A DNA stretch of 64,000 bases from Chlamydiales bacterium (lineage in GTDB: Bacteria; Chlamydiota; Chlamydiia; Chlamydiales; JACKPQ01). The stretch is taken from assembly GCA_024233455.1 (NCBI GenBank), contig JACKPP010000002.1:98825-162824 (forward strand), given 5' to 3'. Positions 7,213 to 26,219 of this stretch are shown piece after piece. The first letter of the stretch is position 1. Every line of letters starts with the position of its first letter. Position numbers and translations under genes: made by a program. Under the pieces are notes generated by a model. It worked only from the letters and a program-made list of their open reading frames with translations. It searched no databases and was not told the DNA's origin.

Positions 7213-7278
7213 AAGCCACCTCCAAACTAAGCCATTTCTACAGGATTTGATTTATTTCGGCAACAACCACTGCACATA

Positions 7279-7587
7279 TCATGATTGTTTCATTTGGCTA
7301 ATATCGGAGAGGACCTGATTGCTGTGGTCTTTAGTTGGATCTTGGATATAGGTATTTAAATCTTTGGCCAGTTTATCCTTATAGCTTTTAAGTTGCTCAT
7401 TTGCCAGAGCGCTTGCTGACTTACCCATCGCATCAAGTGATTCGTTCATTGCTTTTTTATACATGTCTTTTTGCGCTTGGAAAGTCGATTTTTCATAATT
7501 TTTGAAGCTCTCCTCGAAAATATTGACTCCTTGCTGAAATTCCTGGTGATAAGAAGGGGGCTCATGAGAGATGGGGTTTGTATCCAT
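7279..7587 (-). CDS. small hypothetical helical protein (102 aa)
   Basis: ATG-initiated ORF with K/E/Q-rich, predicted helical sequence and no signal peptide. The function is unknown, so whether it is coding at all is only moderately supported. Confidence 0.45.
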   Translation of the reverse strand: MDTNPISHEPPSYHQEFQQGVNIFEESFKNYEKSTFQAQKDMYKKAMNESLDAMGKSASALANEQLKSYKDKLAKDLNTYIQDPTKDHSNQVLSDISQMKQS

Positions 7588-7646
7588 ATATATTGTCCTA
7601 AAATTGTGGTTTACCTTACTATTCGTCTATAACTGCGTGGGGGTTT

Positions 7647-8663: not shown

Positions 8664-8692
8664 ATTGACACGAGAAAATCCACGCGGTATTG
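8664..8692 (+). promoter_or_regulatory. candidate sigma70-type promoter of dnaN
   Basis: TTGACA (8664-8669), a 17-nt spacer, then TATTGT (8687-8692). An AAGGAG Shine-Dalgarno (8702-8707) and the dnaN ATG at 8718 follow. Confidence 0.5.
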
Positions 8693-8717
8693 TAGAGTAA
8701 AAAAGGAGTCGTTTGTC

Positions 8718-9830
8718 ATGAAATTTGTTATGTCTAGAGCAGAGCTTGTCAAGCTCATGGGCCGCATCCAAAGCGTTGTATCATCCAAGCCGGCAATTCC
8801 TATTTTGTCTAATATTTTAATCGAGGCGTATGCCGATCAAATTATTCTAAGTGCAACTGATTTGACTGTGAGTATGCGGACCTATACCGATGCCAAAGTA
8901 TTACAAGAAGGCGCCATTACTCTACCTGCCAAGCATTTCTTTTCTCTGATCCGCGAGTTGACTGCTCCGCAAGTAGAAATCAGCGCCGATGCTGATGAAA
9001 TTGTGCGTGTTGTTGCTGGCAACTCCAATTTCAAGATCAACGGGATGGGTAAAGCGGAATTTCCCACACTTCCAGATTTTATGGGCGCCCCTAGTTTTGA
9101 AATCAATGGCGAAAAATTTAAAACCTTGCTCTCTAAAACGGCATTTGCAGCGGCCAAAGATGACAGCAGACAAATGCTCAATGGTATTTTGATGCAGCTG
9201 CAAGGGAACAATTTGGGCTTTGTTGCCACCGATGGAAAGCGCCTGGCTAAAGTGCGTGCGCAAATTGAAATGCAAGCCCCGCTTGAAGGCCAGCATATTA
9301 TTCCGCTTAAGGCCGTTGAAGAAGTCATTAAAACGCTTGATGGCGAGCAAACAGCTAAGGTCTTAATTGGCGAAGATAAAATCGCTATCGAGTCGGGCTC
9401 TACCTGTTTTATGACCAAGCTGCTCAGTGGTGATTATCCCGATATTGAGCGGGTCATTCCCACCAACTGCTCATCCAATTTACACCTGCACCGGGATGAA
9501 CTCATTAGCATTTTGCGACAGGTTTCTCTCTTCACTACCGACCGCAGCCAATCAGTGCGTTTTTGTTTTTCGCAAGGTGAGCTAAAGCTATTAGCAGCTA
9601 GCAGCGAGATTGGAGAAGGTGCAGTCAGCATGCCGGTCGACTACTCCGGGGAATACATGGAAATTGCCTTTAATCCCAATTTTTTTCTCGACATCTTACG
9701 TCACACCAAAGACGAAACCGTCGCATTTGGCATGAGCGATCCCTACAATCCAGGCCTTATCACCGATAAATCAGCCGCTCAATTTGTGATCATGCCTATG
9801 CGTATTGAACAGCCTGCACATGTGGCTTAA
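8718..9830 (+). CDS. dnaN: DNA polymerase III beta sliding clamp
   Basis: 370 aa. MKFVMSRAELVKLMGRIQSVVSSKPAIPILSNILIEA is typical of a DnaN N-terminus. The three-domain length fits, and a strong SD lies upstream. Confidence 0.95.
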   Translation: MKFVMSRAELVKLMGRIQSVVSSKPAIPILSNILIEAYADQIILSATDLTVSMRTYTDAKVLQEGAITLPAKHFFSLIRELTAPQVEISADADEIVRVVAGNSNFKINGMGKAEFPTLPDFMGAPSFEINGEKFKTLLSKTAFAAAKDDSRQMLNGILMQLQGNNLGFVATDGKRLAKVRAQIEMQAPLEGQHIIPLKAVEEVIKTLDGEQTAKVLIGEDKIAIESGSTCFMTKLLSGDYPDIERVIPTNCSSNLHLHRDELISILRQVSLFTTDRSQSVRFCFSQGELKLLAASSEIGEGAVSMPVDYSGEYMEIAFNPNFFLDILRHTKDETVAFGMSDPYNPGLITDKSAAQFVIMPMRIEQPAHVA

Positions 9831-10866
9831 ACGGCTTTATCTTCATAATTTTCGCAGCTATAAAAAATCGCAGGTAATGTTTGCTCCTGGTATCAACGTG
9901 ATACAAGGAGCAAATGGACAAGGGAAAACCAACCTTCTAGAAGCTATTTATCTGCTAAGTACAGGCCGTTCATTTAGGACGGCTTTTTTAAACGATTTGA
10001 TCCGACACGACACGCCGGGATTTTTTATCGAAGCCGAATTCGAACGCGATGGCATTGAACAGATTTTGCGCATCAGTTTTGATGGGCAAACGCGCAAAGT
10101 GCAACACAATGCCACCAACTACTCTAACTTTGCTAATTTGCTTGGCCTGCTTCCTTCCGTTCTCTTTGCTCCGCACGATGTGAATCTCATTAGCGGCGCT
10201 CCTGCTGATCGCCGTCGCTTTATTAACCTCCATATCGCGCAAAGCGACCCGCTCTACGTCCACCATTTGCTGCGCTTTGGTAAAGCCCTTAAACAGCGCA
10301 ACTGCCTGCTTAAAGCAGGGTCTAAACAAGGAATCGACATTTGGGAAGCAGAAATGGCCCTGTCTGCACTCGTTTTAGTCCAAAAAAGAAAACATGCCGT
10401 AGAGAGTCTACACAGCAAACTGACTCCCCTGGCCAAAGCGCTCAGCTTAGATGCCGATAGTTTTGAGCTGAACTATCATCCGTCGATCGCCACTGACTTT
10501 GTCAATCAGTGGGCCTCCCACCGAGGCAAAGAGCTTATTTTAGGTGCAACGCAACGGGGCCCTCACCGGGATGATCTCAACATCATCTTGTCTGGCAAAA
10601 ACGCCAAAAGCTATTCCTCTGAAGGACAAAAGCACTCCTGTCTGGCGGCTTTGCGTTTTGCTGAATGGGAAGCTTTACAAGAGCGCTTTGATGACAAACC
10701 GCTTCTGGGTATTGATGATTTTGGCGTGCACTTAGATGCAGGAAGATTTGCAACTCTAACCGATCGCCTTGGCTCTTTTGGACAAGTTTTCCTCACCACG
10801 CCCCAAGGTGCAAATATTCAAAGCGACTGCGCGATCACAATTAAAGAGGGTGCTTGTCTTCAGTGA
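9820..10866 (+). CDS. recF: DNA replication and repair protein RecF
   Basis: MWLKRLYLHNFRSY, Walker A GANGQGKTNLLEAI, and an SMC-like signature region. The track start at 9805 is TTG; the ATG at 9820 matches RecF N-termini and overlaps the dnaN stop by 11 nt. Confidence 0.9.
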   Translation: MWLKRLYLHNFRSYKKSQVMFAPGINVIQGANGQGKTNLLEAIYLLSTGRSFRTAFLNDLIRHDTPGFFIEAEFERDGIEQILRISFDGQTRKVQHNATNYSNFANLLGLLPSVLFAPHDVNLISGAPADRRRFINLHIAQSDPLYVHHLLRFGKALKQRNCLLKAGSKQGIDIWEAEMALSALVLVQKRKHAVESLHSKLTPLAKALSLDADSFELNYHPSIATDFVNQWASHRGKELILGATQRGPHRDDLNIILSGKNAKSYSSEGQKHSCLAALRFAEWEALQERFDDKPLLGIDDFGVHLDAGRFATLTDRLGSFGQVFLTTPQGANIQSDCAITIKEGACLQ

Positions 10867-10951
10867 TAAGCGAGCAAGGTCAAGTTAAATAGTATTGTGT
10901 AAATTCTCTTATTTCAAATAGGTTGTCTGTGTTTAATAACTAATTCGCGAG

Positions 10952-10994
10952 CGCCGTTTATCCCGGCCATAAATGGCCAGGTTTTCGGCGTTTT
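10952..10994 (+). terminator. possible intrinsic terminator between convergent recF and pgi
   Basis: A bipartite hairpin: CGCCG(10952-56)...GGCCAT(10965-70) AA ATGGCC(10973-78)...CGGCG(10986-90), followed by TTTT. The 7x7 internal loop makes it weak. Confidence 0.3.
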
Positions 10995-11136
10995 AGTGAT
11001 AAAGCAGCAGAAATGGCAGCAAAGCAAGCATTAAAAGGTCCCAGCAATAGGGCTCAAGCTTCTTTTGTGTCTGAGCTTGATCAATCAGCAGATCATACTC
11101 TTTGGGGCTTAAGTGACTTAATAAACGCTTTGCGCG

Positions 11137-12720
11137 CTATAGCGAATCAAAATGGTTGATATAGCTAGAGGCCTCGGGAAAAGAGCGAGGATCTCCTTCT
11201 TCTTTTTTGTGGCGGCTAGCGTAAATAGAAATCACCTTATTGGCTAAAACTTTGCCTAGCTGCACTCCCTCTTGGTCAAATGAATTGATATTCCAGATAA
11301 AACCTTCAAATGCGGTGACATGCTCGTAATAGGAGAGGATGAGTCCCATGGTGTAGGCGTCGCATTTTTTAGCTGCAAGAATGCGGGTAGGACGATTGCC
11401 TTTAAAAACTTTGTTGGGGTTCTCATCTTCTTTACCAGTTGCCAGACCGATGGCTTGAGCGATGAGGTTGGATACCAGTTTTTCCTGCGAATTAGAGGCT
11501 TCCACTTCGATGTCTTGCCCAAATTGGGACTGTTTAAAGCCGATAAATTCGATCGGCACAACGGTCATTCCCTGGTGAATGAGCTGATAAAATGAATGCT
11601 GCCCATTTGTTCCTGGCTCACCCCAGATGATAGGACCGGTTTCAAAGTCAATAAATTGACCTAAACGATCGATTTGCTTGCCGTTGGACTCCATCGACAG
11701 CTGTTGCAAGTGCGCTGAAAAGCGGGAGAGAGCTCGCGAATAAGGAATAATAGCTTTGGTGTGGTGTTTAAGGAAATTGCGATTCCAAATAGATAGTAAA
11801 GCTCCAACCAGCGGCAAATTTTGCGAAAAGTCGGGATTCAGTGCCGCTTTATCCATAGCGCTCATGCCGCGTAAAAAATCTAGAAATTTATCCATGCCAA
11901 GGGCAAAAGCAATCGCTACACCGCCCACCATAGAGCTTGCTGAATACCTTCCTCCGACATAATCCCACATGTAGAAGCTGGCTCGGTATTTTGAAGGATC
12001 ATCCATAGGACTATTTTCACCGGTCACAGCGATCATATGTTCTTTAGGACTTAGGCCTTTTTCTAGCAGTTTCTGGCGAATGAATTCTTCGTTGGTTCTG
12101 GTCTCAAGAGTAGTGCCAGATTTAGACACAACGACTACGAGCGTTTTGGCCAGATCGACTTTGCGCAAAATGGCCGTGGCATCGTCAGGGTCCACATTGG
12201 ATAAAAAATGGACAGTACGCCCCTCTTTTTTAAATGCTTCTAGCGCTAAATAAATAGCCTTGGGACCAAGTTCCGATCCGCCTATGCCCACCTGGATTAT
12301 ATCGGTAAAAACGCCTTGATTGTTAACACCTTCTAAAAAACGCTTAAGCTTTTCAAGTTCTTGAAAAGCTGCGGCTGCTGCATCATGGGCTTTGGCCTCA
12401 GTGCGTTGATTTTCAAAAAAATCGCGCATAGCAGTATGCAAAACAGATCTATTTTCGCTCTCGTGCCCTTCAATGCGGTTGATGATTTCCCCAGATTGCA
12501 TTGCCTCCATTTGTTCGATCACATTGCGCTCTTTGGCCAGCTCAAAAAGCCCCTGCATCACCTCATCATTGACCCTCTCTGTTGCAAATAAAAGCTTTAA
12601 TCCAAGCGATGAGCACACCATTTCCTCAATCCGTTTACAGGTTAAGCTCTTTTTTTCATTTAGATTGATCGGGTTTTGAGCAAGTTCGCTAAGCTTCTTT
12701 GCTGCTGGTAAATCGTACAT
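11137..12720 (-). CDS. pgi: glucose-6-phosphate isomerase
   Basis: Typical PGI blocks are present: GIGGSELGPKA, VSKSGTTLET, GEPGTNGQHSFYQLIHQG. The start was trimmed to ATG 12720 (MYDLPAAKKL), which is preceded by AGAGGGGA. Confidence 0.95.
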   Translation of the reverse strand: MYDLPAAKKLSELAQNPINLNEKKSLTCKRIEEMVCSSLGLKLLFATERVNDEVMQGLFELAKERNVIEQMEAMQSGEIINRIEGHESENRSVLHTAMRDFFENQRTEAKAHDAAAAAFQELEKLKRFLEGVNNQGVFTDIIQVGIGGSELGPKAIYLALEAFKKEGRTVHFLSNVDPDDATAILRKVDLAKTLVVVVSKSGTTLETRTNEEFIRQKLLEKGLSPKEHMIAVTGENSPMDDPSKYRASFYMWDYVGGRYSASSMVGGVAIAFALGMDKFLDFLRGMSAMDKAALNPDFSQNLPLVGALLSIWNRNFLKHHTKAIIPYSRALSRFSAHLQQLSMESNGKQIDRLGQFIDFETGPIIWGEPGTNGQHSFYQLIHQGMTVVPIEFIGFKQSQFGQDIEVEASNSQEKLVSNLIAQAIGLATGKEDENPNKVFKGNRPTRILAAKKCDAYTMGLILSYYEHVTAFEGFIWNINSFDQEGVQLGKVLANKVISIYASRHKKEEGDPRSFPEASSYINHFDSL

Positions 12721-14676: not shown

Positions 14677-14685
14677 AAGAAAATT

Positions 14686-14767
<82 letters not shown>

Positions 14768-14915
14768 ATTCAGAATTAGTCATTCTAATGGCGTTGAGCA
14801 ATTTTCGTCAATTTAAATTCACTTCGAAATTTTCTTTGGTTTGGTTAGAGTATCTGTCGACATAAATACAAGAATTTGCTTATAGTGACGGCCTTTAACA
14901 ATGGAGGTCATGACC

Positions 14916-15509
14916 ATGGAGTGGAAAAAATTCACACTTGTATGCATCTTATCATTCACCTGCTTGGGCGCTTTTGCCGATGAGGCTGAAAGTTCCAATG
15001 AAGAGCCAGTTCAAGAGCAGGTCTATGTCCCGAAAATTTACGAAGAGAACTTGGATCAATATATTCAAAATAACAATGTGCATATGTCTCGATATATTCG
15101 TTGGAATAGCACTGAAATCATGCTTCTAAGTGACGATTCGGTGTGGATGGTCAATCCCCTAGAGGTACGCGTTGCTGGTTGGTGGGACCGTTTGCGTGGT
15201 AGAGAAATTACCCAGCCAGAAGACCGGTTTTTAGCAAAGCCCATCGAATGGAAAGAAGATTCTGACCTGAAGGTTTACCGCTATAACTGGAAAGATTCGG
15301 GTCTGGCTAAAATTTACGAATTTGACGCAACACGTTTGATTTACTGCACACATATTCTCCAAAATGTGGCCACAGGCCAAATGGTATTTGCACGCCAGCT
15401 TAAAAATTGCCACGTAGTACAACTATTTAACAGCTGGGTACAGGACGTGCGAAGCAAAGGCTTTGTTGAAGGGTATGAAAAAGGGTACAACGACGCGAAG
15501 AAGATTTAA
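14916..15509 (+). CDS. secreted protein, stand-alone paralogue of the N-terminal domain of the downstream FtsH-like protein
   Basis: Signal peptide MEWKKFTLVCILSFTCLGAFADEA. GGAGG (14903-07) lies 8 nt before ATG 14916. The domain aligns by eye with residues ~45-140 of ORF 15513: DDSVWMV/NDTAWIV, GWWDRL/NWWDFL, CTHILQN..GQMVFARQL/STHLIFN..QQMAFARRL. Confidence 0.6.
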   Translation: MEWKKFTLVCILSFTCLGAFADEAESSNEEPVQEQVYVPKIYEENLDQYIQNNNVHMSRYIRWNSTEIMLLSDDSVWMVNPLEVRVAGWWDRLRGREITQPEDRFLAKPIEWKEDSDLKVYRYNWKDSGLAKIYEFDATRLIYCTHILQNVATGQMVFARQLKNCHVVQLFNSWVQDVRSKGFVEGYEKGYNDAKKI

Positions 15510-15512
15510 CTT

Positions 15513-18107
15513 ATGCGCCTACTACTAACGCTTGTTTTCTGCGGATCTCTTTTGGCAAAAAGTCAGATGAATTGTCCTGAAGTTTTGCCAAATCGGTATA
15601 GTGAAGGAGTTATTCAGAGCGCCTATGGCTCATCTTTCGACAATAACTCCTATGTGGTGCTCGATAATGACACCGCATGGATCGTGTACCGTCTGTATGG
15701 GAATGCGGAGAATTGGTGGGATTTTTTATCGGATATTAAAGAGGTTGATAAGAAACTTCTCTGCAATCCCACCAGCTGGAAAATTGGCAATGATGTACGT
15801 ATTTACTCTTTGCCTTTCAAAGATTCTTTGGCCCAAAAGTTACTTCAAAATCCTGATCCAGATTTGAGTTGTTCGACGCATTTAATCTTCAATAGGGATA
15901 GGCAGCAAATGGCCTTTGCCAGACGCCTTTCCAGTAAAGAAATGAAAGAATTAAAGTTACAAATCAAACCGATCAAAGTTATTCCCAATAAGGGGTTGAA
16001 AACTCGATTACAAGATGTAGTGGGATACGACGGTATAAGAAAAGAAATCCAACAAATAGCTAGCAGGCTAAAAAATCCTAAACCCTATTTAAAACTCGGC
16101 GCGCAATTGCCCCAAAGCTTACTAATTGCAGGACCATCTGGGTGTGGTAAGACGCTACTTGCAAAGGCTCTAGCTAAGGAGTCGAATCGCCCACTCATTC
16201 AAATTTCGGCCAGCCAGCTCTGGGATGATTTTTTCTTAAAAGATCTTGATGACATAGCTCCTCTTTTTGAGACAGCTAGAAAAAATGCGCCCTGCATCAT
16301 CCTGATTGACGGCTTTGATACATTTGATTTTCTGGGCAACTTAACCGGTTACGATTTTTTAATCGCACGGTTGAATCGTAAAATTGAACTTATGACACTT
16401 GAGACCGATGCATTCTTAGTGATTACAGCAAGAGATGCTAAGAAGATAGGCGCGCAGCTTTTCACATCGAATCACCAATGCCAAATATTAGAGGTTTCAA
16501 CTCCATCTAAAAAAGATCGTATCCAACTATTGCAAGTGCATGCACAAGAATTTGCCGTTGATTCTGCATGTGATCTCGAGCATTTAGGCTATCAAACGCT
16601 TTGTTTTACCCCTGCTGACTTAAAAAGCATTTTTCATCTTGGGGCGCGAATAGCAGCAGCCAAAAAATCGGATGTGATTTCTCAAGAAGATTTAGAAGGG
16701 GCCATAAGGAAGATTGGGCGGCTAAAAGCAGAACATTCTAATGGAGAGAACAATCCAGCCAAGCTCTCAGATCCATTTGTTAAGCCCCTGAAGTTTGATG
16801 CTATTGGGGGCTGTAAAGAGGCCAAAGAAGAGCTCCAAGAGCTAGTGGCATTTTTAAAAAATCCCGGTCAATTTGCTCACTTAGGGGCCAAAGCACCTAA
16901 AGGCACTTTATGCATCGGACCTCCTGGATGTGGAAAAACGATGCTTGCCAAAGCGGTAGCTGGTGAAGCCGGGTGTAATTTCTTTCACTGCTCAGGTGCA
17001 GACATTAACAGCGTCTGGGTTGGCTCAGGTGTCAGCCGAATCAAAGAAGTCTTTAAAGTAGCCAGAGCAAACACCCCAGCAATCCTATTTATCGACGAAA
17101 TTGATGCTGTAGGCGGCAAGCGAATGAATGACCCACAAGCTGCAGCGCGCGATTTTAATAATACTCTCAATCAACTCCTCGTTGAGATGGATGGTTTCGA
17201 TGGCTCTGAAGGTCTAGCTGTGATCGCTGCTACGAACCTGCCTGATTTGCTCGATGATGCACTTATCCGTTCAGGCCGCTTTGATCGACAAGTTGTAATA
17301 GACCTACCTAGTTATGCGGAGCGATTAGAAATTCTATCTATCCATTGTAAGTCACTGCCCCTTGAAGAAAGCGTAGATCTATCTCATACTGCTAGAATGA
17401 CCATTGGAATGTCAGGGGCGGACCTTGTAAATATTTTAAACGAAGCAGCGCTTATTGCCGGTCGCACTAATAAAAAAACAATCAATGAAAGTGATATCCG
17501 CGAGGCGCACGATAAAGTGCAATTGGGTAAAGAGCGGCATAGTCTGAGCTTCTCCGATGAAGAAAAACGTCACACTGCCTATCATGAAGCTGGGCATACA
17601 ATTGTAGGCCTGATTGTGGATTCGGGGACGCATGTCGATAAGGTGACGATCGTGCCAAGAGGTAGAGCACTAGGTCTGACACATTTTATTCCGCAAGGCG
17701 AAAATCTGACCTTGTGGAGAAAGCAAGCAGAAAATAGACTCGCTGAATGCTTAGGAGGAATGGCAGCTGAGCGGATCTGTCTTGGCGATACATCCGCAGG
17801 AGTCTCTAGCGATTTAAAAAATGCCACACAGCTTGCCCGGCAAATGGTAGCTGAATACGGGATGAATGATACGCTGGGATACGCTGCTTTTGGACATGAC
17901 TTATCCTCTGATACCAAGCGACAGATCGATATTGAAGTACGCAAACTTCTAGATAAAGCCTATAAACAAGCCGCAGCTATTATTGAGGAATACCGCCTGC
18001 AAGTCGATCAGATTGTGGCTGGCTTATTAGAAAAAGAAACGCTGTATAGAGCAGATTTAGAAGCCATTTTGAAAGGTCCATCAAGTGAGGATTCCCCTGC
18101 TGCGTAA
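15513..18107 (+). CDS. atypical FtsH-family ATP-dependent zinc metalloprotease with tandem AAA modules (degenerate D1 plus canonical D2) and M41 domain
   Basis: - D1: GPSGCGKT, with Walker B IILIDGFD (no DE).
- D2: GPPGCGKTMLAKAVAGEAG, ILFIDEIDAVGGKR, and second region of homology ATNLPDLLDDALIRSGRFDR.
- Protease: HEAGHTIVG and a PRGRALG block.
- N-terminus: a signal-like MRLLLTLVFCGSLLAKS, with no second hydrophobic span before the ATPase. Confidence 0.85.
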   Translation: MRLLLTLVFCGSLLAKSQMNCPEVLPNRYSEGVIQSAYGSSFDNNSYVVLDNDTAWIVYRLYGNAENWWDFLSDIKEVDKKLLCNPTSWKIGNDVRIYSLPFKDSLAQKLLQNPDPDLSCSTHLIFNRDRQQMAFARRLSSKEMKELKLQIKPIKVIPNKGLKTRLQDVVGYDGIRKEIQQIASRLKNPKPYLKLGAQLPQSLLIAGPSGCGKTLLAKALAKESNRPLIQISASQLWDDFFLKDLDDIAPLFETARKNAPCIILIDGFDTFDFLGNLTGYDFLIARLNRKIELMTLETDAFLVITARDAKKIGAQLFTSNHQCQILEVSTPSKKDRIQLLQVHAQEFAVDSACDLEHLGYQTLCFTPADLKSIFHLGARIAAAKKSDVISQEDLEGAIRKIGRLKAEHSNGENNPAKLSDPFVKPLKFDAIGGCKEAKEELQELVAFLKNPGQFAHLGAKAPKGTLCIGPPGCGKTMLAKAVAGEAGCNFFHCSGADINSVWVGSGVSRIKEVFKVARANTPAILFIDEIDAVGGKRMNDPQAAARDFNNTLNQLLVEMDGFDGSEGLAVIAATNLPDLLDDALIRSGRFDRQVVIDLPSYAERLEILSIHCKSLPLEESVDLSHTARMTIGMSGADLVNILNEAALIAGRTNKKTINESDIREAHDKVQLGKERHSLSFSDEEKRHTAYHEAGHTIVGLIVDSGTHVDKVTIVPRGRALGLTHFIPQGENLTLWRKQAENRLAECLGGMAAERICLGDTSAGVSSDLKNATQLARQMVAEYGMNDTLGYAAFGHDLSSDTKRQIDIEVRKLLDKAYKQAAAIIEEYRLQVDQIVAGLLEKETLYRADLEAILKGPSSEDSPAA

Positions 18108-19017
18108 ATACATCATTGCATGTGGACTGGCAACATCAGCGTGTTTTGGACAAACGCATTGGTTCACTGGGCCTATTGTGGTCTTATCTGGAGAGGTCAT
18201 TCCTAAAGGCCACATCAATGTAGAACCGTTCTTGTTCCAATTTTGGAACAGCGGCTGGTACAATGAAGACTGGAAGCGCATATCCACCCCCACAGTCCGC
18301 TCAACTAATCCCCAGCTTTGTATTTCGCGTGGATTTGCCCAAAATTTTGACGTCGAAATTATACCTCAAATGTTTTTTAATCAAAGTGGAAGTGCGCAAA
18401 GCTGGCGAATGGGAGACTTTCCTTTTATCCTAGGCTTTCAAGCCTTATGGCAAAAGCCTGGCACTTGGATCCCTTCCTTACGCATCACCTTGCAAGAGAC
18501 TTTCCCAAGTGGTCAGTATAATAAATTCACCCCGTCTAAACAACTTACCCAATCATCAGGTGCAGGTTCATATCAAACCTCTCTGGGTTTAAATTTCCAA
18601 AAGCTCATTTCTTTTGATCCTATCCATGCCTTGCAGCTGTATTGGAGCTTAACCTACACCGTTCCTTCTCCTACCCATGTGAATGGCTTAAATTTTTACG
18701 GAGGTGATCCCAAAACCAATGGGACTGTATACCCAGGCAAGCTATTACAGGCGATTGTTTCATTTGAGTACAATTTCACCAAGCACTGGGCTGTGGCTTG
18801 CGATGTGGTAAACCTCTGGCGTGAGGCTGACCGTTTTTCTGGGAAAACGACGGTTAAATCGCGCCGCGGCTCTGGTTACAATTTAAGTCTTGCACCAGGC
18901 ATTGAATATAATGTGAACGGTAATTTAGGGTTTATTTTTGGAAGCTGGCTTTCTGCTGCAGGACGCAACTCCTTTGCTTTTACCAGTGCTGTATTTGCCG
19001 TCAATTACTATCACTGA
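18085..19017 (+). CDS. porin-like outer-membrane beta-barrel protein (family member 2)
   Basis: GTG start overlaps the FtsH-like gene by 23 nt. It has the signal peptide RIPLLRKYIIACGLATSACFG. Blocks PKGHINVEPFLF, FPSGQYNKFTP, SGAGSYQTSLGLNF and LSLAPGIEYN..GSWLSAAGRNS are shared with 7647 and 19030. Confidence 0.7.
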   Translation: MRIPLLRKYIIACGLATSACFGQTHWFTGPIVVLSGEVIPKGHINVEPFLFQFWNSGWYNEDWKRISTPTVRSTNPQLCISRGFAQNFDVEIIPQMFFNQSGSAQSWRMGDFPFILGFQALWQKPGTWIPSLRITLQETFPSGQYNKFTPSKQLTQSSGAGSYQTSLGLNFQKLISFDPIHALQLYWSLTYTVPSPTHVNGLNFYGGDPKTNGTVYPGKLLQAIVSFEYNFTKHWAVACDVVNLWREADRFSGKTTVKSRRGSGYNLSLAPGIEYNVNGNLGFIFGSWLSAAGRNSFAFTSAVFAVNYYH

Positions 19018-19029
19018 TAGGATAGTCTT

Positions 19030-19968
19030 ATGAGAGTGTTTTTTGCCTTATGTTGCTGTACTTCTTTAATAGCTGCTGATTTTACTCCTTGGTTTACCGG
19101 TTCACTGCTCTCACTTCCCGGCCACGTTGTTGGAAACAAAAAAACCAACTACCAGCCCTACCTCTACTACACCAAGGATTACGGATTTTACGATAACAAA
19201 TGGCGCAAGCAATCCACACCATCAACCAGTGTTTGGAATCCTCAGCTGTTAATTACCCGTGGTTTTGGCAATTGGTTTGATTTTAAGATCGAACCGCAAA
19301 TGTTTATCAAATCAGAAAAAGGCCAAACTGCCACGCGATTCGGAGATTTCCCGGTTGTTTTGGGATTCCAGGCGCTCAATCAAACCCGGGGAAGTTGGAT
19401 CCCCGATTTGCGCATTACTTTGCGCGAAAGCTTTCCAAGTGGCCATCACGATCGGCTAAATCCGGCAAAACTTGGCACTGGTGGGAGCGGCTCTGGCTCG
19501 TACGAGACAAGTCTTGGATTCAACTTTCAGCGGCTAGAGCATCTTTTCGGTATCCATTACTTTAGATGGCGCCTCAACCTTGTCTACACCATTCCTTCCC
19601 CTACCCATGTAGATGGTTTTAACGTCTATGGTGGTGGTTTTAGCACCAATGGCACCATTTATCCCGGGAACCATTGTTTTGCCATCTTTGCCTTTGAATA
19701 TAATTTTAATCAGAATTGGGTCTTAGCTTGCGATTTCATGCAAACCTATGGCAATCGCACCAGATTTTCGGGCAAGCCAGGGCGTGACCAACTGGGTAAT
19801 CCTGCTAGGATTGGCTCCCCCTCATCAGATACACTGAGCATAGCTCCTGCTCTTGAATACAATTTTTCCAAAGCACTCGGCATCATAGGCGGCGTTTGGT
19901 TTTCGGCAAGAGGCCGCAACTCTGAAGACTTTATTAGCTACGTCCTTTCAGTTAACTACTTCATGTAA
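19030..19968 (+). CDS. porin-like outer-membrane beta-barrel protein (family member 3, tandem paralogue)
   Basis: Signal peptide MRVFFALCCCTSLIAA. It has the same blocks: NYQPYLYY, FPSGHHDRLNP, SGSGSYETSLGFNF, LSIAPALEYN..GGVWFSARGRNS. It lies 12 nt after the previous paralogue. Confidence 0.7.
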   Translation: MRVFFALCCCTSLIAADFTPWFTGSLLSLPGHVVGNKKTNYQPYLYYTKDYGFYDNKWRKQSTPSTSVWNPQLLITRGFGNWFDFKIEPQMFIKSEKGQTATRFGDFPVVLGFQALNQTRGSWIPDLRITLRESFPSGHHDRLNPAKLGTGGSGSGSYETSLGFNFQRLEHLFGIHYFRWRLNLVYTIPSPTHVDGFNVYGGGFSTNGTIYPGNHCFAIFAFEYNFNQNWVLACDFMQTYGNRTRFSGKPGRDQLGNPARIGSPSSDTLSIAPALEYNFSKALGIIGGVWFSARGRNSEDFISYVLSVNYFM

Positions 19969-20014: not shown

Positions 20015-20986
20015 CTAATGGCTATTAAAGATGAGGGTAAGGAGAAAGTGATCGAGCCAGCGTACACCGCCTTCACTTCCTGGAACCCCTAGGTAACCGA
20101 GGTGTCCACCACGAGCAGTCTTGTAGATCGAAATATTACTCGGAAGGGTCACATTATCAAGTACCGAGGAGTCAATGATGGGATCGTCTTCGGCAAAGAG
20201 AATTTGGCACGGTATCGCTATGTTGTGCACCACTTTTAAAGCCTGATCGTTGCGGTAGTAGTCAAAAACATTGGAAAATCCAAAAAGGGGCGCCATGTAG
20301 ATGCTGTCAAAATCGAGCACTTTAAGCTCACGTGAGAGGTGGATTTCAGGCAGCTCGGGAAAGTGTTTGTGCCTATATAGAACATCCTCAATCATGAGTT
20401 TCATGAAATAACGCTCATAGATGCGGTTCTTGGGATTTTCAATGCGGTGAATGCCCGAGACTAGATCGACTGGAGGGCTAACCGCAATGACCCGCTGGAG
20501 ATATTCAGGGCCCCGTTCGGCCAGTTCACCACAAAGCTTGAGCACGACGTTACCTCCAAGCGAAAATCCCATTAAAATGATCGGAGAGTTGGGAGTTTCC
20601 TGTTTGAGTTGGTTGATCACACAAAGCGCATCATCGCTACAGCCCGCCCGGTAAACACGACGGGCAAGCCCCTTACCGCTGCCACATCCACGCATGTTGA
20701 CTCGGACAACTCTCAACCCTTTGGCTGCCAGCTTCCGGGCCATTCTAATCATGTATGGCGATTTGTGTGAACCGCAGAGACCATGGATCATAACGACTGT
20801 TTGATCGGTAGCTTCCCAGGTAGGTGGTGTGGTTATTTCCACTGCAAGCCAATCATGATCAGGTAGATGGATATACCTGGTCTTGGAAAAAGGTGCCCTG
20901 CAAAAGTTAATAAAGGAGGAAAGAATGGTCTGCTTATGGCAGCCAGTTAGGAATGGCAAGGGTGTGAAATCAGGCAAGTTATTCAT
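20015..20986 (-). CDS. alpha/beta-fold hydrolase (YheT/ABHD-type)
   Basis: VVMIHGLCGSHKSPY...RGCGSG...GFSLGGN (nucleophile elbow GxSxG), with a C-terminal ..DD...GGH catalytic pattern. Length 323 aa. Confidence 0.8.
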   Translation of the reverse strand: MNNLPDFTPLPFLTGCHKQTILSSFINFCRAPFSKTRYIHLPDHDWLAVEITTPPTWEATDQTVVMIHGLCGSHKSPYMIRMARKLAAKGLRVVRVNMRGCGSGKGLARRVYRAGCSDDALCVINQLKQETPNSPIILMGFSLGGNVVLKLCGELAERGPEYLQRVIAVSPPVDLVSGIHRIENPKNRIYERYFMKLMIEDVLYRHKHFPELPEIHLSRELKVLDFDSIYMAPLFGFSNVFDYYRNDQALKVVHNIAIPCQILFAEDDPIIDSSVLDNVTLPSNISIYKTARGGHLGYLGVPGSEGGVRWLDHFLLTLIFNSH

Positions 20987-21041
20987 AGTAATTATGACAG
21001 GGTTCTAATTATTTATATAACGTAATTATCTATAAAATCAA

Positions 21042-21521
21042 CTATAAAATGAAATTAAGCGGGACTCCAAATAGAAAAACTAAATTATTAACCCCAGGAT
21101 TAGGATGCGCTGTGCCGAAATTGGTCAGATATGAGTATTGAAGACCAAGTCTGATGCGATTTGAGTAGACCCGCGTAAGTTCAATTGCAGGGCGAAACTG
21201 GATGAAACTCCCCAGATTTTGGCCATTGCCTCTGGAGTAGCCTCCTACTGCAGCGCTAGGTGTGAGCTTGTACTTTTCACCAAGTCCAATGTCATAGGCC
21301 AAACCCAAATAGCCCAAAAAAGCTTCGTTGGTCGTAAAGGTGACCCCTGCCATGGTGTGGATGTGATAGAAGGCATGACCGCCGCGATATTCAAGTTGGG
21401 CTGAGCCTTGCGTTTTTCCTCCAATGTCAAATAAGCCAACACCGCCCATTAGAAGCGGTGGATTATCAGCTGCAAAACAGCTTGCAAAAGCCAATGCTAG
21501 GAACAAAACGCAATTTTTCAT
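21042..21521 (-). CDS. small 8-stranded outer-membrane beta-barrel, PagL/acyloxyacyl-hydrolase-like
   Basis: The start was trimmed to ATG 21521 (MKNCVLFLALAFASCFA, a signal peptide). About 140 mature residues show alternating beta pattern. The C-terminal block LQYSYLTNFGTAHPNPGVNNLVF resembles the PagL-family H-x-S-N...NPG block, but with Y and T at the His and Ser positions. Confidence 0.45.
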   Translation of the reverse strand: MKNCVLFLALAFASCFAADNPPLLMGGVGLFDIGGKTQGSAQLEYRGGHAFYHIHTMAGVTFTTNEAFLGYLGLAYDIGLGEKYKLTPSAAVGGYSRGNGQNLGSFIQFRPAIELTRVYSNRIRLGLQYSYLTNFGTAHPNPGVNNLVFLFGVPLNFIL

Positions 21522-21681
21522 TTCGTGGATGATATACGAGACAATCCCACTATTCAAGAAACATTCCGCCCCCATTGATCTTTGTTTAACCCAATTGAAA
21601 TTGAAAGAACTTGATCATTCTAAAGTTGTAAAAATAAATGAAAAATTGATAGCATGTCTTAGATTTTAACGAAGATTGACT

Positions 21682-22239
21682 ATGAAAACATGTGGTAGCT
21701 TGATTGCTCTGATTTGGGTGGCAACTTTGTTTGCTAGGTTTGATAGTCACCAGCTCCAGCGTATAGCCCCTGCTGGTAAACGAATCGAAATTGAAGATCA
21801 CTCAATTTGGTACATTGCACCTCATTCAAGGAGTAGGATACAGGATTGGAAAAAGGGAGATACTTTGCAAATTTATCCCAATCTCGATTCTTTCTCCAAC
21901 TCCTCTTTTCCCTACTATATTAAAAATAAGAGAAAGCCTTTAACGCCTGTTGCCTCGAATTTGCAACTTGGACCAGAGAAAGCATCCACCAATGCGATTT
22001 GGATTAATCAAGTACATGTTGCCAATCAGCAAATTACTTTGCAAAATGGTCAGGATAAGATAACGCATTGGCAAGTTGAACCTAAAGATAAAGAATTTCT
22101 AAAAACTTGGAAACCCACTCAAGGCATTGTAATAGGCAATAATAAGGGACTGCTTTCATGGTGGTATTCTTCTTGCGAGTATATTTTGATCAATGTTAAC
22201 CGAGGCGAATGGATAAGAGTACAACCTTTGCAAAACTAG
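21682..22239 (+). CDS. secreted hypothetical protein with two copies of a small beta-rich module
   Basis: The track start at 21676 is TTG; ATG 21682 gives MKTCGSLIALIWVATLFA, a signal peptide. There are two modules: IEIEDHSIWYIAP..IQDWKKGDTLQIYPN..YYIKN and ITLQNG..THWQVEP..LKTWKPTQGIVIG..YILINVNRGEWIRVQ. Confidence 0.5.
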   Translation: MKTCGSLIALIWVATLFARFDSHQLQRIAPAGKRIEIEDHSIWYIAPHSRSRIQDWKKGDTLQIYPNLDSFSNSSFPYYIKNKRKPLTPVASNLQLGPEKASTNAIWINQVHVANQQITLQNGQDKITHWQVEPKDKEFLKTWKPTQGIVIGNNKGLLSWWYSSCEYILINVNRGEWIRVQPLQN

Positions 22240-22246
22240 GAAGTCT

Positions 22247-24250
22247 ATGCATCCCATTTTAAAAACCGCACCTTCGAAACAAGCTTTTTGTTCAATAAAG
22301 CATCAGTCAATTATCTTTTCTATTTGTGCAATTGCATTTACAGTTTTTTACGTTTTAATTGTAGTTAGCTTGGCAAGAAGATTAATATTTAGAGTTAACC
22401 AAAAACATGGTGCGAAAAGCGGCTCTTGTGACCCGACAATCATTAGGCAGTCGGTATGGCATAGCTCTAAGATAACCATGGAACAGGTTATAGCCGCCTT
22501 AAATAACGATACCGACGAGGTAGCTTGTACCCTTATTCAGCAGTTTAAACAGCCGCTCACAGAGGAAGTTTTGGAACTTGCGGTTGAGCAAGGTAAGTTA
22601 AAATCAGCGGTTTTAGCTGTTACAAATGGAGCACCACTAAGTAAGAGCACCGTAGAAAAGGTTATTAAGCATCGCCATTTACGTATACTTGAAACCTTTG
22701 CTCATACAGGAAAGGTAAAAGAGATTATTCCGGTATTTGCCGCTGTGATCAAGGCCAGATGGAAGGCCGGAGCTGAAAAGTTATTCCCAAACATCAAAAA
22801 AGATCTTCCAGCGGATATTGTAGTGATGGTAATGGAAAATGGCTGGAAAATATGGGCCGAGAAGATGATTGATGAAGGCCAGCCTATTGATGCAGCCTGT
22901 TTTTTAAAAGCTACTTATATGGGTTGGTTATCGACTTTAGAAAAACTCTGTTCCAGAAAGCCCAACGATATGCAAGAAGGGCTGGATCGGGCACTTAACC
23001 AAGATGCTGTGTGGTCTGATAAGTATCAGGAGGAGGTGTGTCTTTTTCTTATTAAAAAAGGCGCTAAACCAAACAATATGCAAACCGCAATACAAAATGC
23101 GCGCAAACATAATTGGACCCATGTTGTAAAATACTTTGACCTATCCCATTCCCTCCAACAACTTTTAGATGAAATACACGCAGTAGATGATTCCTCTATC
23201 AGTGGGGTTTTAGCTACTAAAGCATTCGATCCTAGCATAGATATTTATTCCATTAGCGGAAAGCATTTTTTTGACGAAGCTATGCGAAGTGGAAATTTAT
23301 CTTACGTTAGTGGATTGTTAGCTATCGAGAATACCCATTATCTTGCAAGTAAAGCAGCTGACCGGTTTGTTTCAGCTGTAAATATAGTAAGGTGCGCAGT
23401 AACGAGGCATAGATTAGCCATTGATCAGCATTTGCTTTCAGATATGGCATCAGCGATTTTAAAAAGTGAAGCTGTTGATGCATCCGCAAAGAGTAGCGCT
23501 AAATATATTTTAGAAGTGGTCAATAACAGGCATTCAGACCGACATATGATCGACAGTGAATTCGGTAGACGCTGTTTAATTCCTGGGGTTAATAGTCTTG
23601 AAGAAAAGGCCAAAATAGCGCAAAAGTTTTCTAAAACATTGATCAATCACAGGGATAAATATGAACGCTCGTTGTTACGACAACTTTTGGCAGGTCCGTC
23701 TCAGCCAAAAGATGAAGCAGTGAATTTTTTGATCAACAATGGTGCTCGCATATTTCTGGGCGATTTAAGACTCGCCTTGGATTTTAGTGATCAAAAAATT
23801 GCGCTGAGTTTATTAAAAGAATTGTTCTCGCATCTAGAGGATTTGCTCTGTGATGTAGTCTCTGCTGACTTTTTTAACAAGCCTTATGTATTAGACTGTG
23901 GACATACGCTTGATGAGTCTACATGCAATGGACTTAAACAGCCTCGATCTGACTTTTGCGAATATGAACGAATTGGCGCCTTCAGTTTGGGATCGCCATA
24001 CGTCTTACCCGCCAAGCAATGTCCACATTGCTTAAAGATCTACGAGGAAAAAGTTTTGTCAACATTCACCCAAAGACTTGTAAAGCTGATCACTCATCAG
24101 GATGATACAACCCCTGAGGCCTTTGTGGAGCTGATTGATGAAGCTATACAAGCCAATGCGTCAAATACCAATCCCATTTTGCTCAAAGAAGTGCTCCGGC
24201 AAAATGTTTTGGATAGCGTGACTCACGAGGGGTGGGTTAAGCTTGTTTAA
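22247..24250 (+). CDS. membrane-anchored repeat protein with C-terminal U-box-like domain (candidate E3-ligase-type effector)
   Basis: It has an N-terminal TM (IIFSICAIAFTVFYVLIVVSLA) and ANK/HEAT-like helical repeats. Residues ~532-616, DLLCDVVSADFFNKPYVLDCGHTLDESTCNGL...QCPHCLKIYEEKVLSTFTQRLVKLI, match the U-box pattern D.LC..I....M..P.....GhTyd...I...L...CP......L.pN..L..lI with a ~28-aa loop insertion. The gene is AT-richer than its neighbours. Confidence 0.55.
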   Translation: MHPILKTAPSKQAFCSIKHQSIIFSICAIAFTVFYVLIVVSLARRLIFRVNQKHGAKSGSCDPTIIRQSVWHSSKITMEQVIAALNNDTDEVACTLIQQFKQPLTEEVLELAVEQGKLKSAVLAVTNGAPLSKSTVEKVIKHRHLRILETFAHTGKVKEIIPVFAAVIKARWKAGAEKLFPNIKKDLPADIVVMVMENGWKIWAEKMIDEGQPIDAACFLKATYMGWLSTLEKLCSRKPNDMQEGLDRALNQDAVWSDKYQEEVCLFLIKKGAKPNNMQTAIQNARKHNWTHVVKYFDLSHSLQQLLDEIHAVDDSSISGVLATKAFDPSIDIYSISGKHFFDEAMRSGNLSYVSGLLAIENTHYLASKAADRFVSAVNIVRCAVTRHRLAIDQHLLSDMASAILKSEAVDASAKSSAKYILEVVNNRHSDRHMIDSEFGRRCLIPGVNSLEEKAKIAQKFSKTLINHRDKYERSLLRQLLAGPSQPKDEAVNFLINNGARIFLGDLRLALDFSDQKIALSLLKELFSHLEDLLCDVVSADFFNKPYVLDCGHTLDESTCNGLKQPRSDFCEYERIGAFSLGSPYVLPAKQCPHCLKIYEEKVLSTFTQRLVKLITHQDDTTPEAFVELIDEAIQANASNTNPILLKEVLRQNVLDSVTHEGWVKLV

Positions 24251-26219
24251 AGTGTTGGGTTTCGTACTCATCGAGAAGGATTGGCCGATAAATGCGCTGC
24301 CTATAAAGGCGTTTAAAGAAGGTTTCGTAGCAGTGAACATCACCCAAGAGCTCTTTTACCAGTTCCGGATATTGACCGGCGATGTTGTTTTTTTCATGCG
24401 GGTCGGAAGCTAGATCGTAGAGGGCGATTTCTTTGGTCCCTCTGGTGTAGATCAGCTTGTAGTTATCATAACGACAGCCGAAATAGCCGTGCACATAGGG
24501 ATTGTGGAAGAAGATTTTTTTACCTCGCTTTTTTCGCAAAAGAGAGCTGCCGACGGTATGGTTAAGCCCTTTTAGATTTAGCAGGTCCATCACAGTTGGG
24601 AAGAGATCGATTTGACTTCCTAACTGGTCAATCATTTTTGGTGTTTGGATGCGTCCAGGAGCATGGATCAGACATGGCACATGGATGTTTTCCTCAAATA
24701 ATCCAAATTGGTTGACGATGCTCTGATCGTGCTCTCCCATCGGCTGGCCATGATCTCCTATAATGAATAGAATGGTGTTTTCGGCAAGTCCTTTTTCTTG
24801 GAGGGCTTTGGTTAGCCTACCCAGACACATGTCGCTGTAGTGGAAGGTACGCAGATAGCGGCCATAGTGGGGATTGTCAAACGCTGGTAGTGGTAGCCTG
24901 CGATGTGGCCCCGGCGGATCGATCCATGGATGATGGTTTGAGATGGTAAATAGGGTGCAAAATTGGGGGGTTTGGCGGTTTTTATCAAGGTGGTCGATAG
25001 TGTAATCCATTAGATATTGATCATGAACACCCCAACTAGTGCCGTGAGCTCCCGGAATGGCTTTGATGATTTCTTCAGTACCAGCTAGGTTATCGTAACC
25101 GTGAGAAGAGAGGCATTCTAACTGATTTTCAAAACTCAAATGATTACCGATAAAGTAGTTACACATGTAGCCACTCCGTTTTAAAACATGGGCAATGCTA
25201 ATGAGGGGAAAGCGAGGAACTGATGATGCATCGAAGGTTTCAACATCGGATGGAATACCAAATTGTGAGGCTGTGACCGCACGGCTTGTTTTTACTGAGT
25301 TGGAGTAAAAGTTTTTAAAGCAGATGCCCTCATGGGCTAATCGGTCAAAATTGGGCGTAATGGAATAAGCGCCGCCTAGAATGCCAATATCAGAGGCACG
25401 CCAAGATTCCATAAAAAGAAAGATCACATGGGGCTGTTCAGCAGCTTCGATACGGATATGGCAAGTTTTAACTCCAGTAAAACCGTGAGTATATTTAAGA
25501 ATGGGGTACTCTGGTGTTAGCAGCGTAAAATCTTCTTCATCATTAAAAAAGAGCTGCTTATTAGGCATGAGAAAGTCTTTGGAAAATCGCAATGTCGAAA
25601 ATAAGACGCTAAACCCCTTACAAAGGAGCCATATTTGCTGCATAAGTAGAGTATTAGATGTAGAGTAGGCAATACGTCTGGGCAAAAAAGCATGAGCACC
25701 AACTGAGACAACTGCAAGGGCTAAACCCGTCCACAAAAAAGGACTTGAGAGGATGAATACTGCCATATGGTTTTGTAGGTAGGCAATGGTGGTAAGGTTG
25801 ATGACCAACATTGCAGCGCCAATAATCAAAAATATCCACACTCCTCTGGCTTTAGCTGAATCCCAAAAAGATCTGATATCGCTTAGAAAAGCAAAAAACG
25901 AGACATCAAAGCGCATGGCTGTTTTGTAGAACAAAAAAGCATCAAATATCAAATCGATTTGGACCAGAAAATAGCCAAGGCCTAAGGCCCAAAAAAGAAA
26001 TGGAAAAGCAAATGGAGCATAGGTATTGAGTAGCATAACCAAAAATATGGCCTGCCACGCTAAAAAAGAGTCTTGGATAATGCCTAATCCTGTGATTATT
26101 CTTTTCATTAATAATGACTTACAAATGAGTTTGCGATGAAAAATTGCCAGGCGCACTACAAGTGCGGGAGCAAGTAGTAATAAAAAGAAGTAAACTTTGG
26201 GATACATAAATGGGCTCAT
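24237..26219 (-). CDS. sulfatase-family membrane protein (LtaS/OpgB-type phosphoglycerol or phosphoethanolamine transferase)
   Basis: A multi-TM N-terminal half plus an alkaline-phosphatase-superfamily domain: VIFLFMESWRASD, NFYSNSVKTSRA, IIGDHGQPMGEHD. Its 3' end overlaps the convergent 22247 gene by 14 nt. Confidence 0.8.
   Translation of the reverse strand: MSPFMYPKVYFFLLLLAPALVVRLAIFHRKLICKSLLMKRIITGLGIIQDSFLAWQAIFLVMLLNTYAPFAFPFLFWALGLGYFLVQIDLIFDAFLFYKTAMRFDVSFFAFLSDIRSFWDSAKARGVWIFLIIGAAMLVINLTTIAYLQNHMAVFILSSPFLWTGLALAVVSVGAHAFLPRRIAYSTSNTLLMQQIWLLCKGFSVLFSTLRFSKDFLMPNKQLFFNDEEDFTLLTPEYPILKYTHGFTGVKTCHIRIEAAEQPHVIFLFMESWRASDIGILGGAYSITPNFDRLAHEGICFKNFYSNSVKTSRAVTASQFGIPSDVETFDASSVPRFPLISIAHVLKRSGYMCNYFIGNHLSFENQLECLSSHGYDNLAGTEEIIKAIPGAHGTSWGVHDQYLMDYTIDHLDKNRQTPQFCTLFTISNHHPWIDPPGPHRRLPLPAFDNPHYGRYLRTFHYSDMCLGRLTKALQEKGLAENTILFIIGDHGQPMGEHDQSIVNQFGLFEENIHVPCLIHAPGRIQTPKMIDQLGSQIDLFPTVMDLLNLKGLNHTVGSSLLRKKRGKKIFFHNPYVHGYFGCRYDNYKLIYTRGTKEIALYDLASDPHEKNNIAGQYPELVKELLGDVHCYETFFKRLYRQRIYRPILLDEYETQHFKQA

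Follow-up and report, generated by a model that had tools for sequence, protein, structure and literature searches.

By textbook account, the bacterial periplasm lacks ATP, and proteolysis in this compartment is therefore ATP-independent. In mitochondria, the catalytic domains of the i-AAA protease Yme1 face the intermembrane space, which ATP enters through outer-membrane porins. Chlamydiae import host ATP via inner-membrane ATP/ADP translocases and may be an exception among bacteria, since this ATP must cross the periplasm to reach the transporters. In the tandem AAA+ proteins NSF and Pex1/6, inactive rings act as assembly scaffolds. Here, we describe an FtsH-like gene at 15513–18107 on the (+) strand of a 64,000-nucleotide (nt) stretch of DNA from a Chlamydiales bacterium (the window, to which coordinates refer unless a locus identifier such as L001 is given). 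It is the second of four (+) open reading frames (ORFs) confirmed by ORF calling, at 14901/14916–15509, 15513–18107, 18085–19017 and 19030–19968. The product is best explained as an FtsH-family AAA+ zinc metalloprotease with an accessory role, restricted to one small clade of uncultured environmental Chlamydiae. Tentatively, and with somewhat less than even confidence, we read it as a Sec-exported, periplasm-facing AAA protease, either tethered or soluble, that would resemble the mitochondrial i-AAA protease in topology and be fuelled by host ATP. A literature search for FtsH proteins with a signal peptide, without a second transmembrane segment, with multiple AAA modules or with a periplasmic location in Chlamydiae found none.

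Architecture of the FtsH-like protein

The 864-residue product of 15513–18107 matched the Pfam models for AAA (PF00004) in two stretches, AAA_lid_3 (PF17862) twice, and Peptidase_M41 at residues 680–852. The NCBIfam FtsH model TIGR01241 scored 674 bits against a cut-off of 600, covering only residues 422–848. By profile search and module alignment, the chain was divided into a first AAA module with its own lid (D1, residues ≈165–412; 16005–16748), a linker motif, NPAKLSDPF (16752–16778), a second AAA module with lid (D2, residues ≈425–675; 16785–17537) and the Peptidase M41 domain (17550–18068; PF01434, E = 1.1e-53). Linker residues P398, A399, K400, L401 and P404 are invariant in the five members with two AAA modules. 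With two AAA modules on a single polypeptide and a lid to each, the protein has a type II tandem AAA+ arrangement; CDC48_N and CDC48_2 had no Pfam match in the protein.

The motifs of D2 are complete: GPPGCGKT at residues 469–476, a VWVG pore loop, ILFIDEIDAV at 524–533, the sensor-1 ATN (ATNLPD) and LIRSGRFDR at 584–592. The M41 domain carries HEAGH at residues 691–695 (17583–17597) and conserved downstream acidic residues, and both candidate positions for the third zinc ligand are present (AAERI and SSDL). D1 is degenerate. Its Walker A motif is intact (GPSGCGKT, residues 207–214); Walker B reads IILIDGFD (residues 262–269), with the catalytic Glu replaced by Gly (DE to DG), the pore loop has FFLKD in place of FVG, the sensor-1 Asn is replaced (VITARD), and TSNHQCQ takes the place of the arginine-finger segment RxGRFDR. 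A first-pass annotation of the window had described both modules in these terms, with an intact Walker A, the IILIDGFD motif and a lost arginine-finger segment in the first, a canonical second module and an M41 domain with HEAGH; all of this was reproduced, and D1 itself was recognised as AAA by the profile. The DG (or DN) change, with Walker A kept, is conserved across the orthologues, which argues that D1 is a selected and not a decaying module. By its motifs, D1 appears to bind nucleotide and to be dead for hydrolysis.

The TIGR01241 score, the full AAA module (D2) and the M41 HEXXH motif place the protein in the FtsH family. The anchor of two transmembrane segments (TM1 and TM2) and an FtsH_ext domain is absent, and PF06480 (FtsH_ext) gave no match in the 864-residue protein or in any of the 10 family members. 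The protein thus satisfies the catalytic definition of FtsH and fails its defining membrane-anchor feature.

Full-coverage orthologues are P0133 (865 residues, 72% identity), P0134 (863 residues, 62%), P0137 (852 residues, 49%), P0138 (849 residues, 48%) and P0232 (816 residues, 39%). The full-length search also returned chlamydial forms with three AAA modules and 1081–1119 residues (P0162, P0164, P0165 and P0166). HE[AV]GH is intact in 10 of 10 family members, and the catalytic motifs of D2 and M41 are invariant. The orthologues derive from metagenome-assembled genomes (MAGs) of uncultured Chlamydiae, and exact-sequence matches of the locus proteins are from uncultured Chlamydiales MAGs (e.g., HPE84553.1, “AAA family ATPase [Chlamydiales bacterium]”), in clusters of 2–4 members.

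FtsH proteins with more than one AAA module are common in other phyla. We found >100 such clusters, of 816–1493 residues, in Dependentiae/Babeliaceae and Actinomycetota, at ≈80% query coverage and 35–40% identity. In these, a single M41 domain is preceded by two to four intact AAA modules (e.g., P0135, 1440 residues; P0139, 1141 residues; P0168 and P0183, ≈880 residues). Hydropathy peaks for both TM1 and TM2 (Kyte–Doolittle ≥ 1.8) were present in five of the six Dependentiae and actinobacterial proteins compared, and many have PF06480; in the sixth, P0139, which apparently begins inside TM1, the only peak is at the TM2 position. D1 and D2 are 64–70% identical in Dependentiae and 56% identical in an actinobacterium, and these modules look like recent internal duplicates. 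In the same BLAST module matrix, the chlamydial D1 was only 29–32% identical to any other module, and no shared D1 ancestry between the chlamydial and the other multi-AAA FtsH proteins could be resolved from identities that are alike to all. The p97-like D1/D2 arrangement pointed out in the first-pass annotation is therefore not unusual for an FtsH, given >100 multi-AAA FtsH clusters with canonical two-TM anchors. The multi-AAA arrangement appears to have arisen repeatedly, in several phyla, a result that stands whatever the location of the chlamydial protease; the unusual feature here is therefore the N-terminus and not the tandem AAA modules.

The signal-peptide-like N-terminus (15513–15563), MRLLLTLVFCGSLLAKS, has an n-region of two residues, an uncharged run of 13, and A-K-S before Q18. 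Residues 3–15 are the sole hydrophobic segment of the protein: no other 19-residue Kyte–Doolittle window of ≥1.6 was found in it or in any of the 10 family members. A signal-like N-terminus followed by a domain of ≈130 residues, with no second hydrophobic span, had been noticed at first inspection, and the hydropathy analysis agrees, with no transmembrane span at residues 140–190. The topological paradox that had been drawn from this, an ATPase-protease behind an apparent export signal, is conserved, since in 10 of 10 chlamydial members the shared domain follows a short N-terminus of signal-peptide type and a second transmembrane segment is lacking.

Across the family, the n-region is 0–9 residues long (2–4 in eight of the 10) with a net charge of +1 to +3 (+2 or +3 in nine), and the uncharged run is 13–19 residues, followed by small residues and often then by acidic ones. 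The corresponding figures for TM1 of the canonical multi-AAA FtsH proteins are an n-region of 10–17 residues, a net charge of +6 to +8 and an uncharged run of 17–25 residues or more. The N-termini of the stand-alone domain proteins and of the barrel proteins described below resemble those of the FtsH-like family. Nine of the 10 members fit a manual definition of a Sec signal peptide (short positive n-region, core of 7–15 residues, small residues at −3/−1, no stop-transfer). Furthermore, the hydrophobic N-terminus is retained in orthologues that are 39–72% identical, despite their sequence divergence, which argues that the segment is translated and under selection. By every manual criterion applied, it would be a Sec signal peptide, and no segment downstream appears able to return the chain across the membrane. 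From these features we infer that the ATPase is exported.

We considered the possibility that the N-terminal segment is not an export signal, but an uncleaved reverse anchor, an in-plane helix or a buried segment. The N-domain, the AAA modules and M41 would then all be cytoplasmic, and the protein would be a soluble or peripheral FtsH paralogue for quality control or regulated proteolysis, with the N-domain as a substrate or adaptor module. This is a serious rival, although we give it less weight than the periplasmic reading. An intact D2 needs ATP, in every FtsH characterised so far the catalytic domains lie on the ATP side, and the longest of the uncharged runs of 13–19 residues could just span a membrane; a degenerate D1 that serves as a hexamerisation scaffold would suit a soluble cytoplasmic enzyme equally well. 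However, positive charge precedes the hydrophobic run and neutral to acidic residues follow it, a distribution that predicts an N-in/C-out orientation, and there is no hydrophobic segment to bring the chain back to the cytoplasm.

An annotation artefact, with the true start downstream of the hydrophobic segment, or a decaying gene, in the form of a functionless fusion or pseudogene, is very improbable. In the window, only TAA-CTT (15507–15515) separates the upstream gene from the FtsH-like gene and the two share a reading frame, as they do in L002 (7995–8003), and M19 of the window protein is an alternative in-frame start. Most orthologues, however, have no Met near residue 19, and in L001 and L003 the upstream gene overlaps the FtsH-like gene in a different frame. 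Read-through is thus not conserved, and the idea of a read-through product or pseudogene, suggested by the shared frame, was rejected on this ground. Moreover, at least 10 orthologues, with identities as low as 39%, have intact ORFs of the same architecture and keep the hydrophobic N-terminus, and their catalytic motifs in D2 and M41 are invariant.

The N-domain and its secreted relatives

The N-domain (≈130 residues; 15564–15953) follows the N-terminal segment and had no model in Pfam or NCBIfam. An alignment of 11 sequences (A1) was used for an AlphaFold2 model, which was confident (predicted local distance difference test, pLDDT, 89.7) and mainly β with short helices. No significant fold match to this model was found in the PDB (best E = 0.33, template-modelling (TM) score 0.35). 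With neither a Pfam nor a fold match, the domain was not assigned to the double-psi-barrel N-domains of CDC48/NSF type.

A word-index homology search with the N-domain alone gave no match, and the same search with residues 1–426 was dominated by CDC48-type double-AAA proteins and returned no orthologue. A metagenome scan with an alignment of the N-domain and D1 picked up generic AAA motifs, recovering only the identical JGI contig. An exhaustive search with a hidden Markov model was needed, covering 1.84 billion representative proteins. The N-domain was found in 123 clusters, only four of which are fused to FtsH. Most of the other proteins are either 160–230 residues long, with the domain starting at around residue 30, or ≈280–420 residues long with two matched stretches. 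Of the 18 non-fusion proteins that were fetched, 17 have a signal-peptide-type N-terminus, the exception being P0359, a Cys-rich repeat protein with a weak match (E = 1.7e-4). The few named members are hypothetical proteins of Parachlamydiales and Anoxychlamydiales. Judging from these matches, the family appears to be restricted to Chlamydiae and, outside the fusions, to be extracytoplasmic. The occurrence of the domain in ≈120 other clusters, nearly always after a classical signal peptide, speaks against a cytoplasmic location of the FtsH-like protein. Whatever that location, the N-domain defines a previously unclassified family of secreted domains, whose model is confident and matches no known fold.

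The gene that ends 3 nt before the FtsH-like ORF encodes a stand-alone member of this family (14916–15509, (+); 197 residues), which matched the A1 profile with E = 1.5e-48. Its product is 29% identical to the N-domain of the FtsH-like protein over 108 residues (E = 3e-14, far below chance), which agrees with its earlier description as a signal-peptide-bearing paralogue of that domain. It consists of a signal peptide, MEWKKFTLVCILSFTCLGAFA, an acidic linker, the N-domain and a C-terminal GYEKGY tail. Orthologues of this gene lie directly 5′ of the protease gene in L001–L004 and L007–L010. In the sub-lineage with three AAA modules, one or two extra AAA-family genes (462–613 residues, PF00004, no signal peptide) are found directly 5′ of the small paralogue (L004 4146–7344, L007 3–3668 and L008 101–3673).

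Many N-domain proteins end in GYxxGY repeats (e.g., P0253, P0258, P0265 and P0281), which gave weak matches to the glycine-zipper-like Yae1_N. The upstream protein in the window has a short version of this tail, EGYEKGY (15468–15506), and in the FtsH fusion the AAA modules occupy its place. A secreted protein of 187 residues, encoded further downstream at 21676–22239, was considered by eye as another relative of the N-domain and rejected (BLAST E = 0.30, no match to the A1 profile).

Gene order, barrel proteins and neighbourhood

The junctions between the four genes are tight, and the layout of the first-pass annotation, with a 3-nt gap, a 23-nt overlap and a 12-nt gap, was reproduced by ORF calling. 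The upstream gene likely starts at the ATG at 14916, as had been assumed there, because GGAGG is found 7 nt before it. The FtsH-like ORF at 15513 begins 3 nt after the stop of the upstream gene (15509), the first barrel gene has a GTG start at 18085 and overlaps the protease stop by 23 nt, and 12 nt separate the two barrel genes. The cluster is preceded by a tRNA-Leu gene (14685–14768, (−)), and the 147-nt gap between this and the first gene contains a promoter-like site, TCGACA-18 nt-TATAGT (14857–14886, (+)), which agrees with the consensus at 10 of 12 positions. Since promoter-like sites are as numerous in the region as expected from shuffling, it is no more than a weak hint. No terminator-like hairpin was found between the four genes in a scan whose counts likewise equal shuffle expectation, making this weak evidence.

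In the clade, the upstream paralogue comes first and is followed by the protease, barrel 1 and barrel 2, then an α/β-hydrolase and PagL on the other strand, and then a secreted protein of ≈185 residues. The order, with overlapping or near-abutting junctions, is kept in six of eight other distinct loci (L001, L002, L003, L004, L005/L006 and L009), and is full in L001, L002, L004 and L009; L003 has a single barrel, and L005/L006 lack the upstream paralogue. In L011, a barrel, cut in this locus, directly follows the protease. In one sub-lineage the protease and the barrels are set apart: in L007, a copper-resistance cassette on the (−) strand (P-type copper ATPase, multicopper oxidase and OEP; 6761–11653) is inserted between them, and L010 has a gap of ≈5 kb (≈5000–10000) at the same place, so that the two need not be co-transcribed. 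In most clade members the barrel genes appear to be translationally coupled to the protease gene, and their linkage, as far as these loci indicate, is conserved in most of the clade and not obligate. The proposed four-gene operon thus holds for order and tight junctions in six of the eight loci, and not as an obligate unit, given the missing upstream gene in L005, the single barrel in L003 and the separated genes in L007 and L010.

The two barrel proteins (18085–19017, (+), 310 residues, ending NYYH; 19030–19968, (+), 312 residues, ending NYFM) each have a signal peptide, are predicted to be all-β, and are 46% identical to each other (E = 8e-90, far below chance). Across 13 sequences, the family has 51 invariant columns, which is unusually conserved for a porin. 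A model built from a shallow alignment of six sequences was of low confidence (pLDDT 42), all-β, with ≈14 strands, and its top fold matches were all outer-membrane barrels (FapF, a COG4313 channel and autotransporter β-domains), with TM scores of ≤0.35. Searches of the family against PDB sequences, and against Pfam at E ≤ 10, gave nothing usable except one weak match of one member to PF13557 (COG4313 family). Because of the all-β model, the outer-membrane-barrel fold matches and the weak COG4313 match, these proteins are likely outer-membrane β-barrels. Of the earlier assignment as two porin paralogues, the paralogy holds, and the barrel identity is likely, on the evidence of a low-confidence model. 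A third paralogue in the window (7647–8663, (+); 338 residues, 36–41% identical to the linked copies) adjoins dnaN/recF and is unlinked to the protease; its product carries a signal peptide and a short coiled segment and ends in Phe, where the linked copies end in YYH and YFM.

A scan for the barrel family, with one genome per species, returned 398 loci in Chlamydiota and in MAGs labelled Coxiellaceae, Legionella, other Gammaproteobacteria and Verrucomicrobia. The best 80 of the 398 were inspected for an FtsH-like gene, and it was present only in the three most similar (L009–L011). Since they are widespread and mostly unlinked to the protease, the barrels belong to a general envelope family and are not dedicated partners, and their proposed role as partners in a protease operon is correspondingly weakened.

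The conserved genes that follow are an α/β-hydrolase (20015–20986, (−)), a PagL-like lipid A deacylase (21042–21575, (−)), the 187-residue signal-peptide protein of no known family (21676–22239, (+)) and a sulfatase/EptA-like enzyme (24237–26219, (−)); this stretch, 20015–26219, has the same order in L001–L005 and L009. Adjacent conserved genes, namely the barrels, PagL, the 187-residue protein and the sulfatase/EptA-like enzyme, are exported or envelope-acting, and the immediate neighbours of the FtsH-like gene all encode exported proteins, which is a further point against a cytoplasmic enzyme.

The same N-terminal signal peptide and lack of a second transmembrane segment would also fit a secreted effector that leaves the bacterium after Sec transport, for instance by type II secretion or in vesicles, as reported for the chlamydial protease CPAF, and assembles in the inclusion lumen or the host cytosol, degrading host proteins chosen by the N-domain. 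There are precedents in Sec-dependent secreted chlamydial proteases and in the AAA+ unfoldase HSP101 of the Plasmodium PTEX translocon, and many ankyrin-repeat and F-box-type host-interaction proteins are encoded nearby in the genome. We nevertheless consider this unlikely. The protein has no recognisable secretion motif beyond the signal peptide, its conserved linkage is to envelope genes (barrels and PagL) and not to effector islands, and the glycine-zipper-like GYxxGY tails of the N-domain family suggest association with the envelope and not host targeting.

Elsewhere in the window, a GH95-type glycoside hydrolase of the α-fucosidase family (30532–32907, (+)), a protein with a weak match to the inverse-autotransporter β-domain (35600–37897, (−)) and a 488-residue ankyrin-repeat protein (47438–48904, (+)) are genes of host-interaction type, typical of environmental Chlamydiae. 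An ORF of 1227 residues without a Pfam match (43580–47263, (+)) lies in the stretch where GC skew is at its most extreme for the window, reaching −0.36.

A putative periplasmic protease and its relation to known systems

In the reading that we prefer, a Sec-exported, periplasm-facing protease, the canonical anchor of TM1, periplasmic domain and TM2 is replaced by a putative Sec-type signal peptide and the N-domain, followed by one or two degenerate AAA modules and a fully equipped AAA-M41 unit. The chain would be translocated through Sec and work on the periplasmic side, either freed by cleavage or held at the membrane by a signal anchor that stays uncleaved. D1 would bind ATP without hydrolysing it and, now that the membrane anchor is lost, would serve as the scaffold for hexamerisation, and D2 would unfold substrates and thread them into the M41 chamber. 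The N-domain may select envelope substrates or dock the hexamer, and the stand-alone paralogue may bind the same partner as the N-domain, as an adaptor or competitor; the names “sensor” for the domain and “decoy” for its stand-alone copy, given in the first-pass annotation, are putative. The weakest step concerns the barrels, which might be docking sites, substrates, or pores for the entry of solutes or ATP. The ATP would be supplied by the host and would pass, in the replicating stage, through the outer membrane and the periplasm. Because the inner-membrane transporters import host ATP, the periplasm should contain ATP while the bacterium is intracellular, which would remove the usual objection to a periplasmic ATPase.

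Several points weigh against a periplasmic enzyme. To our knowledge, no bacterial AAA+ protease acts in the periplasm, and the catalytic domains of the characterised FtsH proteins face an ATP-rich compartment; nor do we know of any measurement of the ATP level in the chlamydial periplasm. The N-terminus of P0164 is a poor signal peptide, possibly because of a mis-called start. The barrel linkage is broken in L007 and L010 and absent at the great majority of barrel-family loci. Finally, no second M41 gene lies within the window, and if the genome has no canonical ftsH elsewhere, the cytoplasmic work of FtsH would fall to this protein.

A more specific proposal, about which we have considerable doubt, is that the protein corresponds, in an energy-parasitic bacterium, to the i-AAA protease of mitochondria. 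It would form an FtsH hexamer with its ATPase and protease domains in the periplasm, receive host ATP via outer-membrane channels and be active only inside the host cell. If so, ATP-dependent proteolysis in the envelope would by itself sense that the bacterium is intracellular and replicating. As a conserved FtsH with an apparent export signal and no returning transmembrane segment, the protein would be the first candidate for ATP-driven proteolysis beyond the cytoplasm of a bacterium, paralleling the protease of the mitochondrial intermembrane space, and would offer a testable handle on envelope remodelling in the chlamydial developmental cycle.

Among known systems, the barrels resemble the chlamydial porins PomS and PomT (pc1489 and pc1077), outer-membrane porins of Protochlamydia that we liken to them by their description in PMC3561449, and the channels of the COG4313/Phenol_MetA_deg type (PDB 4rl8). 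The likeness lies in the size of ≈34 kDa, the signal peptides, the predicted all-β structure and the presence of several copies per genome. The low-confidence model of the window barrels matches 12-stranded outer-membrane barrels, and no significant sequence match to Pfam or to a PDB chain was found for them.

The FtsH-like protein shares Walker A and B, the aromatic pore loop, sensor-1, the second region of homology and the M41 HEXXH motif with canonical bacterial FtsH (Escherichia coli FtsH/HflB; MEROPS M41). It differs in having an unrelated β-rich N-domain instead of TM1-FtsH_ext-TM2, and an extra, degenerate AAA module. The multi-AAA FtsH proteins of Dependentiae/Babeliaceae and Actinomycetota, entered in databases as “FtsH” or “AAA family ATPase”, likewise have two to four AAA modules before a single M41 domain. 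Unlike the chlamydial protein, they have both transmembrane segments, often with PF06480, and their modules are intact, with D1 and D2 56–70% identical.

Yme1/YME1L, a hexamer, is alike in belonging to the FtsH family and, if the topology predicted here is correct, in having AAA and M41 domains that face the periplasm or its equivalent compartment. Yme1 has, however, an N-domain in the matrix, one true transmembrane segment and a single AAA module, and the resemblance would be functional and topological only. The type II AAA+ proteins with an inactive ring (D2 of NSF, D1 of Pex1/Pex6, p97) similarly consist of tandem modules of which one binds nucleotide without the residues for hydrolysis, probably stabilising the hexamer. 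The chlamydial protein differs from these in having no double-psi-barrel N-domain and in the fusion of its active ring to a protease.

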